A DNA stretch of 61,486 nt. It comes from Lentimicrobiaceae bacterium (GTDB taxonomy: Bacteria > Bacteroidota > Bacteroidia > Bacteroidales > WCHB1-69). Shown piece after piece: positions 33,895-39,399 of the stretch. The translations under genes and the position numbers were made by a program. Below the pieces are notes generated by a model. The model had not been told where the DNA came from and did no database searches. It saw only the letters and a program-made list of their open reading frames with translations. The stretch is taken from NCBI GenBank assembly GCA_009787485.1, contig WQWP01000001.1, positions 1-61,486 of the forward strand, given 5' to 3'. Position 1 is the stretch's first letter. The number at the start of each line of letters is the position of its first letter.

Positions 33895-34830
33895 ATGAAA
33901 AAAATCCTCGGAATCGGTAACGCCTTAGTAGATGTGCTCGTTGAAATAAAAGACGAGTCCTTGTTCAAAAAATTCGGTTTAAAAAAAGGAGGCATGGAAA
34001 TGATTAGCGCCGACTTAAAAAACGAAATTCATAGAGAGATTCATGGGTTGCAACAAACCGTTGCCTCCGGAGGCTCCACCTCAAACACCATTTACGGATT
34101 GGCGCAATTGGGCGCTCCGGTGGGTTACATTGGAAAAATTGGAGAAGATGATATGGGGTACTTTTTCAAAAAAGATATGGAGGAAGCAGGTGTAACAACG
34201 CATCTTATTCATTCTAAAATAGATACAGGAATTGCAACCACCTTCATTACCAAAGGTGGAGAGCGTACTTTTGCCACTTACCTCGGCGCTGCGGCAACCC
34301 AAACCCCTGAAGATCTGCACGAACGCATATTCTCTTTGTACGACCTCATCCATGTGGAAGGCTATCTGATTTTTAACAGAGATTTGATTTTAAACATCTG
34401 CAAGCTGGCAAAAAAATGCGGATTGCAAATTTCAATGGACATGGCAAGCTACAACTTGGTAGAAGCAATGCACCCTTTGGTAGAGGAACTGCTTCGCGAC
34501 TACGTGGACATTATCTTTGCCAACGAAGAAGAAGCCTTCGCCTTTACCGGAAAGAAAGAGCACGAAGCTTTAGAAGTTTTATCCGGCTACTGTCCGGTTG
34601 CCGTAGTAAAGTTAGGCGCAGAAGGCTCCTTAGCGCGCGTACACGGAGAAACCACAGTAATTCCCGCCATCAAAGCGCACCCTAAAGACACCACCGGCGC
34701 CGGCGACATCTACGCCGCCGGTTTCCTCTACGGCCTCATCAACAACTACCCCATCGCCAACGCCGGCGCCTTAGCCTCAAAACTAAGCGCAAAGTGCATA
34801 GAGGCGATTGGGGCAAGGATTGGGGGGTAA
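33895..34830 (+). CDS. PfkB-family sugar/nucleoside kinase (adenosine kinase-like)
   Basis: N-terminal GIGNALVDVL, GGSTSNT, and a C-terminal DTTGAGDIYAAGFLYG signature. Confidence 0.85.
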   Translation: MKKILGIGNALVDVLVEIKDESLFKKFGLKKGGMEMISADLKNEIHREIHGLQQTVASGGSTSNTIYGLAQLGAPVGYIGKIGEDDMGYFFKKDMEEAGVTTHLIHSKIDTGIATTFITKGGERTFATYLGAAATQTPEDLHERIFSLYDLIHVEGYLIFNRDLILNICKLAKKCGLQISMDMASYNLVEAMHPLVEELLRDYVDIIFANEEEAFAFTGKKEHEALEVLSGYCPVAVVKLGAEGSLARVHGETTVIPAIKAHPKDTTGAGDIYAAGFLYGLINNYPIANAGALASKLSAKCIEAIGARIGG

Positions 34831-34835
34831 ACTTA

Positions 34836-35018
34836 AGGGAGAAAGGAGAAAGGAGAAGGGAGAAACGAGAAGGAAGAAAAGAGAAGGGAGAAGGGAGAAG
34901 GGAGAAACGAGAAGGAAGAAAAGAGAAGGGAGAAGGGAGAAGGGAGAAACGAGAAGGAAGAAAAGAGAAGGGAGAAGGAAGACGGAAGAAAAGAGAAGGG
35001 AGAAGGAAGACGGAAGAA
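34836..35018. repeat. Purine-rich (GA) tandem array, 42-bp period, about 3.5 units plus shorter sub-repeats
   Basis: gggagaaacgag recurs at 34858, 34900 and 34942. The plus strand is almost entirely G/A. It begins just after the pfkB-family stop and runs directly into hairpin copy C. Confidence 0.9.
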
Positions 35019-35077
35019 TATCCCCTTCAAATTTTGAAGGGGTGTCTCGCAAAGCGAGACGGGGTAGTTTATATAAA
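35019..35077 (+). repeat. Double-hairpin element, copy C
   Basis: atatccccttcaaattttgaaggggtgtctcgcaaagcgagacggggtagtttatataaa. It abuts the stop codon (35080..35082) of the DUF559 gene. Confidence 0.9.
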
Positions 35078-35079
35078 TA

Positions 35080-35499
35080 TCACTTCCCAAACCTCCCCAC
35101 TATAAACCCCTCCAAATCCAACAACACACTCCCCATAAAAAACCGCACACTCTCATCAGCCACCCTGTAAACAACCAACCCCAACGATTCCAAATACGCA
35201 CTCCGTTTCTCATCATATTCTTCCTGATATTTATGAATACCCCCATCAATTTCAATGACCAGCCCTAAACTCTCTACATAAAAATCAACAATATAATTCC
35301 CAATAACTCTTTGTCTATCAAAATCAATTCCATAGAACTTCTTTTTATTGACGTGCATCCAAAACATAACTTCTGAAAAAGTGGAGTTGCTCCTTAATTT
35401 TCGCGCTCGGTATTTTAGAGATTCGTTATATGGTAAGGAGTGGATGTAGCGGGTAGGGATTTGGAGGTCTTTGATTTTGATGTGTTTGGTGGTTTTCAT
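35080..35499 (-). CDS. DUF559 (Vsr-like, restriction-endonuclease-fold) endonuclease domain protein
   Basis: 139 aa with ARKLRSNSTFSEVMFW...FDRQRVIGNYIVDFYVESLGLVIEIDGGIH.., the typical DUF559 core pattern. Confidence 0.8.
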   Translation of the reverse strand: MKTTKHIKIKDLQIPTRYIHSLPYNESLKYRARKLRSNSTFSEVMFWMHVNKKKFYGIDFDRQRVIGNYIVDFYVESLGLVIEIDGGIHKYQEEYDEKRSAYLESLGLVVYRVADESVRFFMGSVLLDLEGFIVGRFGK

Positions 35500-35546
35500 G
35501 AGTTGATTTTTTTAAAAATTCTACTTTCTTTTTAGTTTTTAATTTT

Positions 35547-35596
35547 CATATAAACTACCCCGCCCTGCGGGCACCCCTTCAAAATTTGAAGGGGAT
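35547..35596 (-). repeat. Double-hairpin element, copy D (reverse orientation)
   Basis: catataaactaccccgccctgcgggcaccccttcaaaatttgaaggggat, 48 nt upstream of the DUF559 ATG. Confidence 0.9.
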
Positions 35597-35604
35597 GTTT
35601 GGGT

Positions 35605-35628
35605 TGTCCTATACCGAGATATAGGACA
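35605..35628. repeat. Perfect 9-bp-stem hairpin next to copy D
   Basis: tgtcctata-ccgaga-tataggaca. Confidence 0.7.
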
Positions 35629-35815
35629 GAAATTTAGTTGGTTACAGGCTTTGTTGATGTAAATAAAGGGATCTGATTTTTCTGCGTAAATTTCGCGGCG
35701 AAGATATATAATGGAAAGGCGTTTGTCAAGAGGGGATGTTATTTTTTACTAAGTCTTTTTACAACACTATCATTTTTTTTGTTAATTAGCACCCAAATTT
35801 AAAACAGCAATTTCT

Positions 35816-36247
35816 ATGAAAAAACTTGAATTAAAATCAAGAAGATTGTTAAGAACAATTTTCGGCTGTATTAGCTTTACTGCGGTGGCTTTTGTTTTTC
35901 AGGCGTGCTATGGTACACCCCAAGATATGGACTTCCTTGATGTAAGAATTACCGGTACAGTGAAGTCTAAAACTACAGATCTGCCTATCGAAGGGATAAA
36001 AGTTAGCATTAAGGACTTACCATACGATTATGGACTTACTGATACAACGGGCGTTTTTGACTTTTATGCATATCTTCCGAATTATGTGCATCGGGTCAAT
36101 GACAGTGTGGTTTACAAACCCGACAGCTTAAAAATTCAATTTCTTGATATTGATGGTATCGAAAATGGCAGTTTTAATGATACAACAATCTACGTTCCCA
36201 CATATAGGAAGAGGATAGAAATTCATGTAGCATTAGAGGAAAAATGA
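35816..36247 (+). CDS. Putative lipoprotein with a CarboxypepD_reg-like beta-sandwich (radical-SAM-associated lipoprotein type)
   Basis: Lipobox-like FVFQAC, then ITGTVKSKTTDLPIEGIKVSI...TDTTGVFDF. The stop overlaps the rSAM start (ATGA). Confidence 0.7.
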   Translation: MKKLELKSRRLLRTIFGCISFTAVAFVFQACYGTPQDMDFLDVRITGTVKSKTTDLPIEGIKVSIKDLPYDYGLTDTTGVFDFYAYLPNYVHRVNDSVVYKPDSLKIQFLDIDGIENGSFNDTTIYVPTYRKRIEIHVALEEK

Positions 36248-37293
36248 CAAACCTCCTCCACACCATCTTCCGCAAAAACGAAACAAAACTCCACATCCTC
36301 AACTACCTATTTTGGGAATGCACCTGGCGTTGCAACCTGAAATGCCACCACTGCGGCTCCGATTGCAAGAGCAGCAGCACTCATCCCGATATGCCGTTTG
36401 AAGATTTCCTCAACGCCATTCAACCGCTTAAAAAAGAATACCCCAAAAATTCCATAACCGTTGCCATCATGGGTGGCGAGCCCCTGCTTCGTTCGGATTT
36501 GGCCGAGTGCGGCAAACAACTGCGCGAGCACGGCTTCCGATGGGGCATCGTTACAAACGGCTATGCCTACGACGAAGCGATGCACTCCAAACTGATTTCG
36601 GCAGGAATGGGCAGCATCACTGTCAGTTTAGACGGTTTGGAAGAAAATCATAATTGGCTAAGAAACAATCCGAAAAGTTTTGAACGCGCCGTGAAAGCGT
36701 TAGAGCTGATTATCTCTTACCCTCGTTTGAATTATGATGTTGTAACCTGCGTTCATCAAAAAAACATCGCAGAACTGCCTGATTTAAAAGAATTTCTAAT
36801 TTCCAAAAACATAAAAAACTGGCGCATTTTTACCATTGCGCCCATTGGCAGAGCCGCTGAAAATCAAGAAATGCTACTCTCAAACGAGCAAACGCGGCAA
36901 CTCATGAGTTTTATTGCAGCATCTCGCCAAAACGATCCCCGAATAAACCTCTATTTCAGCTGCGAAAGTTATGTTGGAGCGTATGAAAAAAAGGTGCGCG
37001 ACAGTTACTTCTTCTGCCGTGCAGGCATCAACATCGGCTCAGTGCTGATTGACGGCGCTATCTCCGCCTGCCCAAATATTGATAGAAGTTTTGCTCAAGG
37101 CAACATTTACAACGACAACCTTTTAGAAACATGGAAAAATCGTTTTGAAATTATGCGTAACCGAAACTGGTGTAAAACAGGCATTTGCAAAAACTGCAAA
37201 GATTTTAAACGTTGCAACGGCGGCGCCATGCACCTTTGGAATGAAAGACAAGATGGCATCATGGCTTGTATTGCAGAAAAATTAAAATTTTAA
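36244..37293 (+). CDS. Radical SAM / SPASM-domain protein
   Basis: CNLKCHHC (CxxxCxxC) near the N-terminus, and a C-terminal SPASM-type Cys cluster CRAG...ISACPN...CKTGICKNCKDFKRCNGG. Confidence 0.88.
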   Translation: MTNLLHTIFRKNETKLHILNYLFWECTWRCNLKCHHCGSDCKSSSTHPDMPFEDFLNAIQPLKKEYPKNSITVAIMGGEPLLRSDLAECGKQLREHGFRWGIVTNGYAYDEAMHSKLISAGMGSITVSLDGLEENHNWLRNNPKSFERAVKALELIISYPRLNYDVVTCVHQKNIAELPDLKEFLISKNIKNWRIFTIAPIGRAAENQEMLLSNEQTRQLMSFIAASRQNDPRINLYFSCESYVGAYEKKVRDSYFFCRAGINIGSVLIDGAISACPNIDRSFAQGNIYNDNLLETWKNRFEIMRNRNWCKTGICKNCKDFKRCNGGAMHLWNERQDGIMACIAEKLKF

Positions 37294-37294
37294 T

Positions 37295-38806
37295 ATGTTT
37301 TTCAAAAAAATATCGTTATATTCATTATTTATGAATTTTAACCTAATGAATACCCAACCTCACCATCCAAAATTCTCAATTCTCAATTCTCAATTCTCAA
37401 TTCTCATTCTCCTTTTCTCCCTTCTCCTTGCTCCTTTTACCTCTGTTTACGCCCAAAAAAAACAAAAAAAAGAAAAATCCACTAAACAAACCGAGCTTGT
37501 AATCAACGAGCGCAAGCAATCTATTGTTTTTGCCGATGGGCTTCGCGAGTTTTATTCGCAAAATTATTCTGCAGCAAAAAAATCGTTTCAGGAAGTATTG
37601 AAACAAAATCCTAAAAATCATGCGGCTCATTATCTGCTGCATAAAATAGCGGTGGAGCAACAAGATTACCTGTTGGCTTCCCATTATTTAAAGGAAGCGA
37701 TAAAATTGGATAAAAAAAATGAATGGTATCAGATTGATTTAGCGGGAGTTCACGAAAAATTGGGCGATTATGTAAGCGCTGCAAAAATTTGGGAAGAAAT
37801 ATGTAAAGTGAAATATAATAATGAATATTATTTAATATCGTTGGCAAACAGCTATTTACATTTAGGAAGATTGCACGATGTCATCAAAGTATATGATCGA
37901 ATAGAGAATCTCTTGGGAAAAAATGACGGTCTCACCGAAACCAAAAAAAATATATGGCTCTATTTAAACGATGTAAAAAACGCCGTGCGGGAATATGAAA
38001 AATTGATGGCGCTTTATCCTCATGAAATTGGATATTACATTATTGCCGGCGAAATTTACTTGTCGAACAACATGCCGGACAAAGCGTTTCCTTTCTTTCA
38101 GCAAGCCATGCAGATAGATGCAGAAGATCCTGATTTGAACTTGGCATTGGCAAACTATTACGAGCGCGTTAAAAAACCGGAGGAAAGTTTTGAGGCATTA
38201 TTAAAGGCTATTTCGAGCAAGGAGTTAGAGATTGAAGAAAAAATTCCTACACTGAAAACCTATTTAGCCAACGCTTTTCGTTTGCAAGTTCCCGACATAT
38301 TGGAAAAAACTGAAAAATTAGCCCAAGCGGTTACCATAGCGCATCCTTTCGATTTGGAAGGTTGGGCATCTTTAGCCAAACTCAGCTCGCTAAAAAAACA
38401 ATATCAGGAAGCTAAGTTGCTCTACGAAAAATGTATAGCGTTAGATGAAGCACAATTTTCCATTTGGGAAGATTATTTTTATGTGTTGGCAAAATTGGAA
38501 GATTATCAAACCATTATCGCCAATGAGAAATTAGTAGAAGAATATTTTCCTACCAATGCCACCATTCAATACAGTTTGGCGCTGGCTTTATACAAAGAAA
38601 AACAGTTCGAGAGCGCTTTAAAGGCTGCCAAACGCGCATTAGCATTCACTTTTGAAAATAGTTTCGTAGCAGATTTGAATCTATTACTTGGCGACATCGC
38701 GATTGAATTGGAGCAAAAAGAGGAAGCGGTAAAATATTGGAAAACAGCGCAACGCCGCGGGATTAACACCCCTGAGCTGCAAAACAAAATAGAAACCAAT
38801 CAATAA
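37295..38806 (+). CDS. Secreted TPR-repeat protein
   Basis: The ATG lies 2 nt after the rSAM stop. There is a hydrophobic N-terminus ending VYAQ and multiple 34-aa TPR-like units (A..Y..A...F..AL..NP...A.Y.L). Confidence 0.8.
   Translation: MFFKKISLYSLFMNFNLMNTQPHHPKFSILNSQFSILILLFSLLLAPFTSVYAQKKQKKEKSTKQTELVINERKQSIVFADGLREFYSQNYSAAKKSFQEVLKQNPKNHAAHYLLHKIAVEQQDYLLASHYLKEAIKLDKKNEWYQIDLAGVHEKLGDYVSAAKIWEEICKVKYNNEYYLISLANSYLHLGRLHDVIKVYDRIENLLGKNDGLTETKKNIWLYLNDVKNAVREYEKLMALYPHEIGYYIIAGEIYLSNNMPDKAFPFFQQAMQIDAEDPDLNLALANYYERVKKPEESFEALLKAISSKELEIEEKIPTLKTYLANAFRLQVPDILEKTEKLAQAVTIAHPFDLEGWASLAKLSSLKKQYQEAKLLYEKCIALDEAQFSIWEDYFYVLAKLEDYQTIIANEKLVEEYFPTNATIQYSLALALYKEKQFESALKAAKRALAFTFENSFVADLNLLLGDIAIELEQKEEAVKYWKTAQRRGINTPELQNKIETNQ
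37370..37437. repeat. Heptamer array (attctca, about 5 units) fused to a CT-rich tract, inside the 5' end of the TPR CDS
   Basis: aattctcaattctcaattctcaattctcattctccttttctcccttctccttgctcctttt. It encodes KFSILNSQFSILILLFSLLLAPF. Confidence 0.85.
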
Positions 38807-38835: not shown

Positions 38836-39399
38836 ATGAAACGCCTCTTTATTGCCATAGACACTGAGTTGTCGAGCGAATTTCAGGCATTAACCCAACA
38901 ACTGCAACACGAGTTAAGAAACGACGATATTGTGTGGGTAAAAAGCCACTTACAACACCTTACCTTGCGTTTTCTCGGCGAAACCCCCGAAGCCAAAATC
39001 GAGCCCATTGCGGACGCTTTGGTTGCCATAGCAAATATAACATCACCCTTTGAATTACAGTTAGATAAAATGGGCGTTTTTGGCAGTAAATATGCGCCTT
39101 CCGTTTTGTGGTACGGTTTTTCCGAATTTTCATTATTCAAAAATCTGTTTGAAAACTTGGAAAAAGAGCTGTTTCAAATCGGATTTCAGGAAAACTATGG
39201 AAATTTCGTGCCTCATATCACAGTAGGAAGAATAAAAAAAGTGGATAGCAAGAAGCGTTTTTGGGAAACGATTGAAAAGCGGCAGCCGCATTTCTCGCAA
39301 ACCGTGCCCGTTCAGCGGCTTAAGCTGATGCAGAGCAAACTTACGAATGAAGGACCTGTGTATAGGACGTTATTTGAGTTTGAATTAAAAAACATTTAA
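38836..39399 (+). CDS. thpR: RNA 2',3'-cyclic phosphodiesterase (2H phosphoesterase, LigT/ThpR family)
   Basis: Two H-x-T-x motifs at the expected spacing: HLTLRFLGE and PHITVGRI. The protein is 187 aa. Confidence 0.85.
   Translation: MKRLFIAIDTELSSEFQALTQQLQHELRNDDIVWVKSHLQHLTLRFLGETPEAKIEPIADALVAIANITSPFELQLDKMGVFGSKYAPSVLWYGFSEFSLFKNLFENLEKELFQIGFQENYGNFVPHITVGRIKKVDSKKRFWETIEKRQPHFSQTVPVQRLKLMQSKLTNEGPVYRTLFEFELKNI

Follow-up and report, generated by a model that had tools for sequence, protein, structure and literature searches.

What does a radical S-adenosylmethionine (SAM) enzyme with a SPASM domain do when its gene overlaps that of a small lipoprotein? The question is raised by a contig of 61,486 bp from a metagenome-assembled genome (MAG), annotated by NCBI as Lentimicrobiaceae and analysed here over its whole length, which we call the window. 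A sequence-only reading had described three genes as one translationally coupled operon: a lipoprotein of 143 aa (the partner), a radical SAM/SPASM enzyme (rSAM) of 349 aa and a tetratricopeptide repeat (TPR) protein of 503 aa. All three open reading frames (ORFs) are real and lie where that reading had placed them (Table 1), and the ATGA through which the partner stop and the rSAM start overlap by 4 nt was read in the sequence. The conserved unit is the partner and the rSAM only, with the TPR gene as a bystander. With confidence evenly divided, we propose that the two genes form a self-contained cassette, in which a TIGR04133 radical SAM/SPASM maturase acts on its cognate exported substrate and modifies it at a Cys-Tyr-Gly-x-Pro motif. 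The TIGR04133/TIGR04134 pair is already catalogued in NCBIfam/TIGRFAMs as the 'rSAM/lipoprotein system', with both models entered as hypothetical equivalogs, and the cassette of the window is one more member of this family.

The rSAM scored 454.9 bits against the hidden Markov model (HMM) TIGR04133 (rSAM_w_lipo; curated cutoff 425, E 1.5e-136), in a match spanning profile positions 10-349 of 350 and residues 6-347 of the protein. The family that had been named was thus the right one, and the HMM search placed the enzyme in this uncharacterised family, not in a characterised one. Homologues in JGI and NCBI are named 'TIGR04133 family radical SAM/SPASM protein' or 'radical SAM enzyme (rSAM/lipoprotein system)'. 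PF04055 matched at 67.1 bits, and the CxxxCxxC cluster noticed earlier corresponds to C30/C34/C37. The C-terminal SPASM domain was borne out as well: PF13186 was absent from the whole-protein Pfam scan, but a scan of residues 230-349 alone, the C-terminal 120 aa, gave it 25.1 bits and so exceeded the gathering score of 21.5. At E <= 1e-30, 318 relatives were found among 1.84 billion representatives, with no sharp family boundary, and the family is distributed over anaerobic Bacteroidales-type genomes.

To define the conserved unit, 80 genome loci with rSAM relatives of 50-84% identity were compared. A partner-family ORF lay directly upstream of the rSAM in 74 loci, that is, in 74/77 of those that could be evaluated. 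Three of the six exceptions were cut by contig ends, and another, L077 from an Ignavibacteriaceae MAG, had a divergent partner with a coiled coil as its C-terminal part. The partner stop and the rSAM start overlapped or abutted in 47/64 loci. The suggested lipoprotein-rSAM pairing therefore holds across the family. Clustering of all neighbouring ORFs in the 80 loci yielded no other gene conserved across the set. The genes for TPR, LigT, pfkB and DUF559 adjoined the rSAM in 0/80 of these genome loci, and relatives with an 86% identical rSAM were followed by unrelated genes. Of the three-gene synteny implied by the sequence-only reading, the lipoprotein/rSAM pair stood and the TPR gene did not.

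The partner is matched by a profile built from 79 rSAM-adjacent neighbours at 1.8e-40. Its deposited record (FWD09_00110, 'hypothetical protein', P0121) comprises 133 aa, with a start placed 10 codons beyond the ATG at 35816 that the family conserves, and so lacks the greater part of the signal peptide's Lys/Arg-rich n-region; the deposited start codon is probably wrong and ATG 35816 the genuine one. Conservation was assessed in 56 non-redundant partners of 30-60% overall identity and was concentrated near the N-terminus, where the mean column entropy was 1.39 bits (residues 13-35) compared with 2.43 bits over residues 36-143. Y32 and G33 were each retained in 55/55 non-redundant partners, C31 in 52/55 and P35 in 51/55. 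The N-terminal module comprises a Lys/Arg-rich n-region, a hydrophobic core and the lipobox residues F-Q-A. The segment FTAVAFVFQAC, which ends at Cys31, matches a PS00013-type lipobox preceded by an n-region holding Lys/Arg. This pattern, which served as the lipobox test, ended at the motif Cys in 208/215 partners and in 40/764 background genes. Variant paralogues read FAC-MKK-YGAP, TTCC-K-YGMP or ISC-A-YGPAC: the lipobox context of the Cys and the YG.P motif are both preserved, with 1-3 residues between Cys and YG.P compared with 0 in the usual partners. This variable spacing suggests that the Cys and YG.P serve two distinct functions. A Tat signal was also considered for the S-R-R of the window partner and rejected, as the twin arginine is not conserved: relatives carry QQ, YK or RK in its place, and R13 alone is kept.

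Downstream of this module the partners differ. The AlphaFold2 (AF2) model of the window partner, with a pLDDT (predicted local distance difference test) of 84.9, consists of a helix (residues 2-31), a linker (32-39) and a beta-sandwich (40-140), whose top Foldseek matches in the PDB were the transthyretin-like domains of teneurin and carboxypeptidase D. The partner itself had no Pfam match and its homologues carry PF13715/PF13620, in line with the CarboxypepD_reg-like fold that had been read from the sequence. Counted by ORF, the C-terminal part was a beta-sandwich in 66 cases, an acidic, Pro-rich tail of 30-40 residues in 15 and a coiled coil in L077. When the N-terminal 43 residues were used as a profile, hundreds of proteins were retrieved, and the 120 top-ranking ones were all 54-76 aa long. 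Two short partners that were looked up lay 3-5 nt upstream of enzymes scoring 478 bits on TIGR04133, and the enzymes beside short or coiled-coil partners scored 472-478 bits. TIGR04134 did not recognise the short acidic or coiled-coil partners tested. The only element common to all partners is the N-terminal module of signal peptide, lipobox and C-Y-G-x-P, not the beta-sandwich. With an interchangeable C-terminal part and an HMM blind to the short and coiled-coil partners, the system is best defined by 'signal peptide plus C-Y-G-x-P'.

Among 69 members of the enzyme family, 13 cysteines were invariant: C26, C30, C34, C37, C41, C169, C240, C258, C276, C315, C318, C324 and C342. C26 and C41 flank the CX3CX2C motif. 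The canonical SPASM motif has seven cysteines, CX9-15GX4C...CX2CX5CX3C...C (PMC5715301); six of these and the upstream C240 were invariant in the family, and Ala328 occupied the position of the CX3C cysteine, whose equivalent in the anaerobic sulfatase-maturating enzyme (anSME) is C330, a ligand of auxiliary cluster I (Aux I) (PMC5715301). Aux I would then have three assigned Cys ligands, C240, C258 and C276, unless C26, C41 or C169 completes the cluster. This assignment follows from motif spacing and the literature; searching the PDB by sequence with the SPASM region on its own returned chance matches only. The AF2 model of the enzyme (pLDDT 84.2) had SkfB, SuiB, anSMEcpe, ChlB and PqqE as its top Foldseek neighbours, with anSMEcpe the best full-length match (template modelling score, TM, 0.70/0.69), and these nearest neighbours in structure are peptide- or protein-modifying enzymes. 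Neither the sequence nor the model showed a signal peptide or hydrophobic signal at the N-terminus, and the enzyme is predicted to be cytoplasmic. Its core begins at about residue 20 with a first strand at 21-27, and it has neither an N-terminal extension of the size (about 80-100 aa) of a recognition element (RRE) for peptides that are ribosomally synthesised and modified after translation (RiPPs) nor a PqqD/RRE match in Pfam.

We infer from these features that the partner is the substrate of the enzyme. The cytoplasmic enzyme would recognise the conserved signal-peptide-like N-terminus of the partner, and 5'-deoxyadenosyl radical chemistry would modify the invariant Cys-Tyr-Gly-x-Pro junction before export. 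The most likely target would be Tyr32 or Gly33, since these are the only invariant non-Cys residues common to all partner types and since the Cys tracks the lipobox and not the YG motif. The Cys31 thiol may dock on the incompletely Cys-ligated Aux I, as the three-Cys auxiliary cluster of CteB, PapB and Tte1186 binds a substrate Cys (PMC10177961). The modified precursor would then be exported by Sec, and Lgt and LspA would attach the lipid to Cys31 and cleave off the signal peptide. This would yield a lipid-anchored beta-sandwich protein with the modification on the first residues after the anchor. Candidate chemistries are a cross-link, epimerisation and oxidation. This proposal is supported by the score above the TIGR04133 cutoff, the pairing with the partner and with no other conserved neighbour, the N-terminal module as the one element common to all partners, the interchangeable C-termini and the lipobox at the motif Cys. 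The enzyme side adds the lack of a signal peptide, structural neighbours that modify peptides or proteins and the missing fourth Aux I cysteine.

The cassette resembles the catalogued TIGR04133/TIGR04134 system in having an enzyme above the cutoff and a small lipobox protein immediately upstream that overlaps the rSAM. A wider parallel is offered by the DAG-RiPPs (DybA/DybH, NedABC; PMC13056109, PNAS 2026), minimal two-gene clusters in which a precursor of the signal peptidase II type lies directly upstream of a cytosolic modifying enzyme without a signal peptide of its own. Their precursors range from peptides to whole proteins, modification in the cytosol comes first and processing by Lgt, LspA and Lnt follows, and RiPP-lipoproteins from other enzyme classes are explicitly predicted (PMC13056109). 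The DAG-RiPP enzyme is, however, an MNIO (DUF692) and that of the window a radical SAM/SPASM protein; moreover, the signal peptide itself is strongly conserved in the window family, unlike in DAG-RiPPs. By analogy, the window system may work like a DAG-RiPP, and it is not a member of the described DAG-RiPP families. anSME (PDB 4K36-4K39) is likewise a minimal rSAM-SPASM protein of about 350-370 aa without an RRE; its target, a short motif in a protein destined for Sec export, is modified while still in the cytoplasm, an analogy for the order proposed here. Its similarity to the family profile is generic only (34 bits), and both of its auxiliary clusters are fully Cys-ligated (PMC5715301), whereas the TIGR04133 family lacks the CX3C cysteine. 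The thioether maturases CteB, PapB and Tte1186 are SPASM enzymes acting on Cys-containing motifs and also have an Aux I with three Cys ligands, but the missing Cys is a different one; such maturases have an N-terminal RRE and leader-containing precursors other than signal peptides, in contrast to the RRE-less enzyme of the window. SkfB, the top Foldseek match, is a Twitch relative. Against RiPP maturase HMMs, the window rSAM scored 66.6 bits for PapB (cutoff 340) and 57.9 bits for StsB (cutoff 625).

Several points weigh against the proposal. The partner, for which TIGR04134 (lipo_with_rSAM) had been suggested, does match this model, but at 28.5 bits and hence below the cutoff of 39.8. Other genuine rSAM-adjacent partners scored 31.1, 38.4 and 40.5 bits, so the model is marginal for this clade and narrower than the real partner set; the window partner has in addition an insertion of ~12 residues (about residues 90-101) that is missing in most members. 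The SPASM region of the AF2 model is of low confidence (pLDDT 55-69). DAG-RiPPs carry their modified Cys motif at the C-terminus, at a distance from the signal peptide, whereas in the window the conserved motif occupies positions +1 to +5 of the lipidation site. As C-Y-G-x-P touches this site, a modification could disturb Lgt or LspA, and Y-G-x-P might be conserved for another reason, as a signal for sorting or processing. No paper on TIGR04133/TIGR04134 and no experimental datum for any member was found. A literature search for radical SAM enzymes with lipobox or lipoprotein precursors found nothing, one paper on RiPP mining in Bacteroidales does not mention lipoproteins, and the sole text match to TIGR04134 was a typographical error for the type-B C-terminal domain of the type IX secretion system (T9SS).

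The main rival to this substrate/maturase proposal is that Cys31 itself is modified and never lipidated, through a sacti- or ranthipeptide-like thioether or another chemistry at the Cys, with Tyr or Gly as possible points of attachment. The N-terminal segment would then serve as the leader of a RiPP or stay uncleaved as a membrane anchor, giving a cross-linked peptide or protein that is not lipidated. The SPASM enzymes best known for acting on Cys motifs form thioethers, with a three-Cys auxiliary cluster that binds the substrate Cys (PMC10177961), and the near-invariance of Cys31, the absent Aux I cysteine of the family, the multiple short precursor-like paralogues per locus, as in RiPP clusters, and the weak peptidase-like fusions of sub-cutoff enzyme relatives all fit such a reaction. 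It is nevertheless unlikely: the lipobox rule is obeyed around the Cys in nearly all partners, a Cys-YG.P distance of 0 to 3 residues suits two functions better than a ring of fixed size, and the rSAM has no N-terminal extension of RRE size. A little less probable again is action on a non-protein substrate such as a cofactor, tetrapyrrole, sugar or lipid, with the lipoprotein as carrier, receptor or exporter component. Small molecules are substrates of some SPASM/Twitch enzymes, the secondary HMM matches included the tetrapyrrole enzymes NirJ and AhbD, and the best sequence matches to solved structures were BlsE (nucleoside sugar) and GDGT-MAS (lipid-tail-coupling). These matches, however, span the generic rSAM core only, at 50-130 bits. 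The partners share their N-terminal 35 residues and no common ligand-binding domain, many of them are acidic peptides of 60 aa, and no biosynthetic genes are conserved around the pair.

Membership of the rSAM in a characterised family (anaerobic sulfatase maturase, viperin-like defence enzyme or PqqE/MftC-type maturase) is the least probable of the alternatives. The fold similarity to anSMEcpe noted above, a PADLOC pVip match of 74 bits and generic matches to MftC and PqqE would speak for it, but every model of a characterised family scored far below its cutoff (for example MftC 107 vs 265, PqqE 78 vs 381, viperin 72 vs 180 bits). TIGR03942 (anaerobic sulfatase maturase) was not among the 25 best NCBIfam matches of the window rSAM, which passes the cutoff of its own TIGR04133 model, and the related enzyme of L077 scored 57.4 against the 349.45 required by the anaerobic sulfatase maturase model. 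No sulfatase, PqqA or MftA-like gene is adjacent, and the window partner carries no C/S-x-P-x-R motif as in anSME substrates. Viperins have no SPASM domain, and the viperin/defence reading was rejected, the pVip match being confined to the generic rSAM core. Only slightly more credible, and still improbable, is the three-gene translationally coupled operon with the secreted TPR protein as a functional component. The genes share an orientation, no terminator-like site was predicted on the + strand between them, and in L083 (93% identity) and L091 (about 81-83%, partial), the two nearest relatives, the rSAM is likewise followed by the TPR gene. Synteny largely refutes this operon: the TPR gene is absent beside the rSAM in the genome loci, as described above, and a TPR-based search of metagenome contigs, mostly from termite gut, placed an rSAM upstream of the TPR gene in 1 of about 24 loci with enough upstream sequence (L091), whereas TPR and LigT were adjacent in 44 loci and pfkB lay directly upstream of TPR in 10. 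The downstream genes are also unrelated in relatives with an 86% identical rSAM, and the TPR gene probably starts at a later ATG, with its native upstream sequence retained.

This start bears on the coupling that had been described. Only 1 nt, not 2, separates the rSAM stop (37291-37293) from the ATG with which the long TPR ORF opens, and that ATG is probably not the one used. In related pfkB-TPR contigs translation starts at the equivalent of ATG 37346 (M18, MNTQPHH...), 52 nt downstream of the rSAM stop, which is probably the start in the window as well. In L094, L096 and L113, the short spacer between pfkB and TPR is the homologue of segment 37300-37354. What looked like tight rSAM-TPR 'translational coupling' is therefore artefactual, a result of choosing the longest ORF; the TPR repeats themselves were verified by a Pfam scan.

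Taken together, synteny and nucleotide alignments led us to conclude that the ancestral array was pfkB-TPR-LigT, into which the partner-rSAM cassette was inserted in the window lineage, followed later by the DUF559 element. In L083, the closest rSAM relative, the order is pfkB, partner, a gene for 189 aa, rSAM and TPR; the gene for 189 aa is absent from the window, and the block 34831-35770 is absent from L083. As this whole block is missing there, the DUF559 block behaves as an inserted element. The DUF559 gene that had been noted next to the operon is thus real, but its adjacency is incidental, the product of a later insertion. It is bracketed by inverted repeats containing the palindrome CCCCTTCAAA(A/T)TTTGAAGGGG, which occurs in four copies in the window with 0 expected by chance. 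The features are listed in Table 1.

Table 1. Coordinates of the two-gene cassette and of the surrounding features in the window.
Feature	Position	Strand	Basis or remark
Palindrome copies	26141, 32682, 35022, 35574		Four copies in the window
pfkB-family kinase	33895-34830		Flanks TPR
DNA absent from ancestral pfkB-TPR junction	34831-37299		blastn of window vs L083, L094, L096, L098, L113
DUF559 element and purine tandem array	34831-35770		blastn vs related contigs
Purine-rich tandem array	34835-35018		Period 7/14/42
Inverted repeats around DUF559 gene	35017-35080 / 35542-35599		Contain the palindrome
DUF559 ORF	35080-35499	-
Partner-rSAM cassette block	35771-37299		blastn vs related contigs
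Partner gene, 143-aa lipoprotein precursor, TIGR04134-like	35816-36247	+	ORF, sub-threshold HMM, neighbour profile, AF2
Signal-peptide-like N-terminal module, residues 1-30	35816-35905	+	Proposed recognition element for the enzyme
Cys31-Tyr32-Gly33-Thr34-Pro35, Cys31 as lipobox Cys	35906-35920	+	Proposed modification site; codons read
Transthyretin-like / CarboxypepD_reg-like beta-sandwich, residues 40-140, variable 'cargo'	35933-36235	+	AF2, Foldseek
ATGA, partner stop / rSAM start overlap	36244-36247	+	4-nt overlap, read in sequence
TIGR04133 radical SAM/SPASM enzyme, 349 aa	36244-37293	+	TIGR04133 HMM, PF04055, AF2
CX3CX2C radical SAM cluster motif, C30/C34/C37	36331-36354	+	Invariant in 69 family members
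SPASM auxiliary-cluster region	36961-37269	+	C240, C258-x12-G-x4-C276, C315-x2-C318-x5-C324, C342
TPR ORF, longest form, 503 aa	37295-38806	+	Probable start ATG 37346
AATTCTC heptamers	37371-37411		Six copies
LigT-type RNA 2',3'-cyclic phosphodiesterase	38836-39399		TIGR02258, 134.8 bits

Further observations concern the surroundings of the TPR gene. The pfkB-TPR-LigT array is strongly conserved across termite-gut Bacteroidales contigs, and a fragment of the DUF559 block was found upstream of pfkB in L094. The purine-rich tandem array, with about 26 AAGGGAG-like copies, immediately follows the pfkB stop, on the border of the DUF559 insertion, and yields spurious Lys/Glu/Arg-rich ORFs on both strands. 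Six AATTCTC heptamers lie inside the signal-peptide coding region of the TPR gene (SILNSQFSIL...); as seven cannot be divided by 3, altered copy numbers would cause a frameshift, which makes this a possible phase-variation site. L094 and L098 have a different sequence there. An Rfam search of the window gave no RNA family match, the region upstream of the partner gene contained no TAnnTTTG box, and the sigma-70 promoter scan is uninformative for Bacteroidota.

Around the cassette in other genomes, a protein of 189-192 aa with a signal peptide, a C-terminal GYRF/GYKF and no Pfam match, resembling a small outer-membrane beta-barrel, was encoded in L083 (1218-1787), L081 (5422-6000), L084 (5396-5965) and L005 (4927-5499). 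Its gene sits between partner and rSAM in L081-L084 and upstream of the partner in L005, and all these loci are termite-gut relatives. As a third component it was rejected, since just 5 related loci have it and the window does not. A rumen Bacteroidales clade (L085-L090, L042-L061) has a larger conserved neighbourhood: upstream are genes for an ADP-forming acyl-CoA-synthetase-like protein, a membrane protein of 98-108 aa and a CotH protein with a T9SS tail (~600 aa); these are followed by a polytopic membrane protein of 229-235 aa, 1-3 partner paralogues and the rSAM, and then by an ATP-binding cassette (ABC) ATPase, two membrane proteins and GntR. One partner paralogue of this clade reads QACDGFP in place of QACYG.P. 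The cassette often lies beside toxin-antitoxin genes (PIN/VapC-like, HicA, SymE), an integrase and a transposase, as in L002 (5112-5832), L081 (4294-4482 and 12485-13065) and L084 (792-965 and 13018-13062), and in L002 the partner gene has apparently been replaced by a toxin-antitoxin pair. Such neighbours are consistent with a position of the cassette in variable genome regions.

Among the sub-cutoff TIGR04133-like relatives of the enzyme, several carry fused domains: P0381, P0394 and P0426 (736-854 aa), P0395, P0414 and P0440 (543-560 aa) and P0485 (834 aa). TIGR04133 was confirmed as the best, sub-cutoff model for P0381, P0394, P0395, P0414 and P0440 only. Some of the fused relatives consist of two rSAM/SPASM modules in tandem, others have a C-terminal extension of ~200 aa with a weak, sub-threshold JAB-like match and an HxH...S..D motif, and one has a weak, sub-threshold match to Peptidase_M50. 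The JAB-like and M50-like fusions are weak hints of peptide processing in the wider clade.

What the analysis adds to the catalogued system is the N-terminal module with its invariant Tyr-Gly, the short-peptide and non-sandwich partners, the incomplete SPASM motif and the insertion history of the locus. Two lessons for annotation follow, namely that TIGR04134 misses most partner types and that longest-ORF starts can give rise to false 'coupling'. The question of what the enzyme acts on is narrowed to a module of 35 residues, signal peptide plus C-Y-G-x-P, for which putative natural minimal substrates of about 60 residues exist. A further-reaching claim, which we advance tentatively and lean somewhat against, is that TIGR04133 would be the first radical-SAM class of RiPP-lipoprotein maturases, modifying the invariant Tyr-Gly after the lipidated Cys and using the signal peptide as its recognition 'leader'. 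If true, the RiPP-lipoprotein concept would extend to radical SAM chemistry, and a new modification would be placed at the lipid-anchored N-terminus of Bacteroidota lipoproteins, the region that governs their sorting and surface exposure. Anaerobic gut Bacteroidales of termite, rumen and horse would then carry a chemically new anchor on surface or periplasmic proteins and on acidic lipopeptides of roughly 40 residues.

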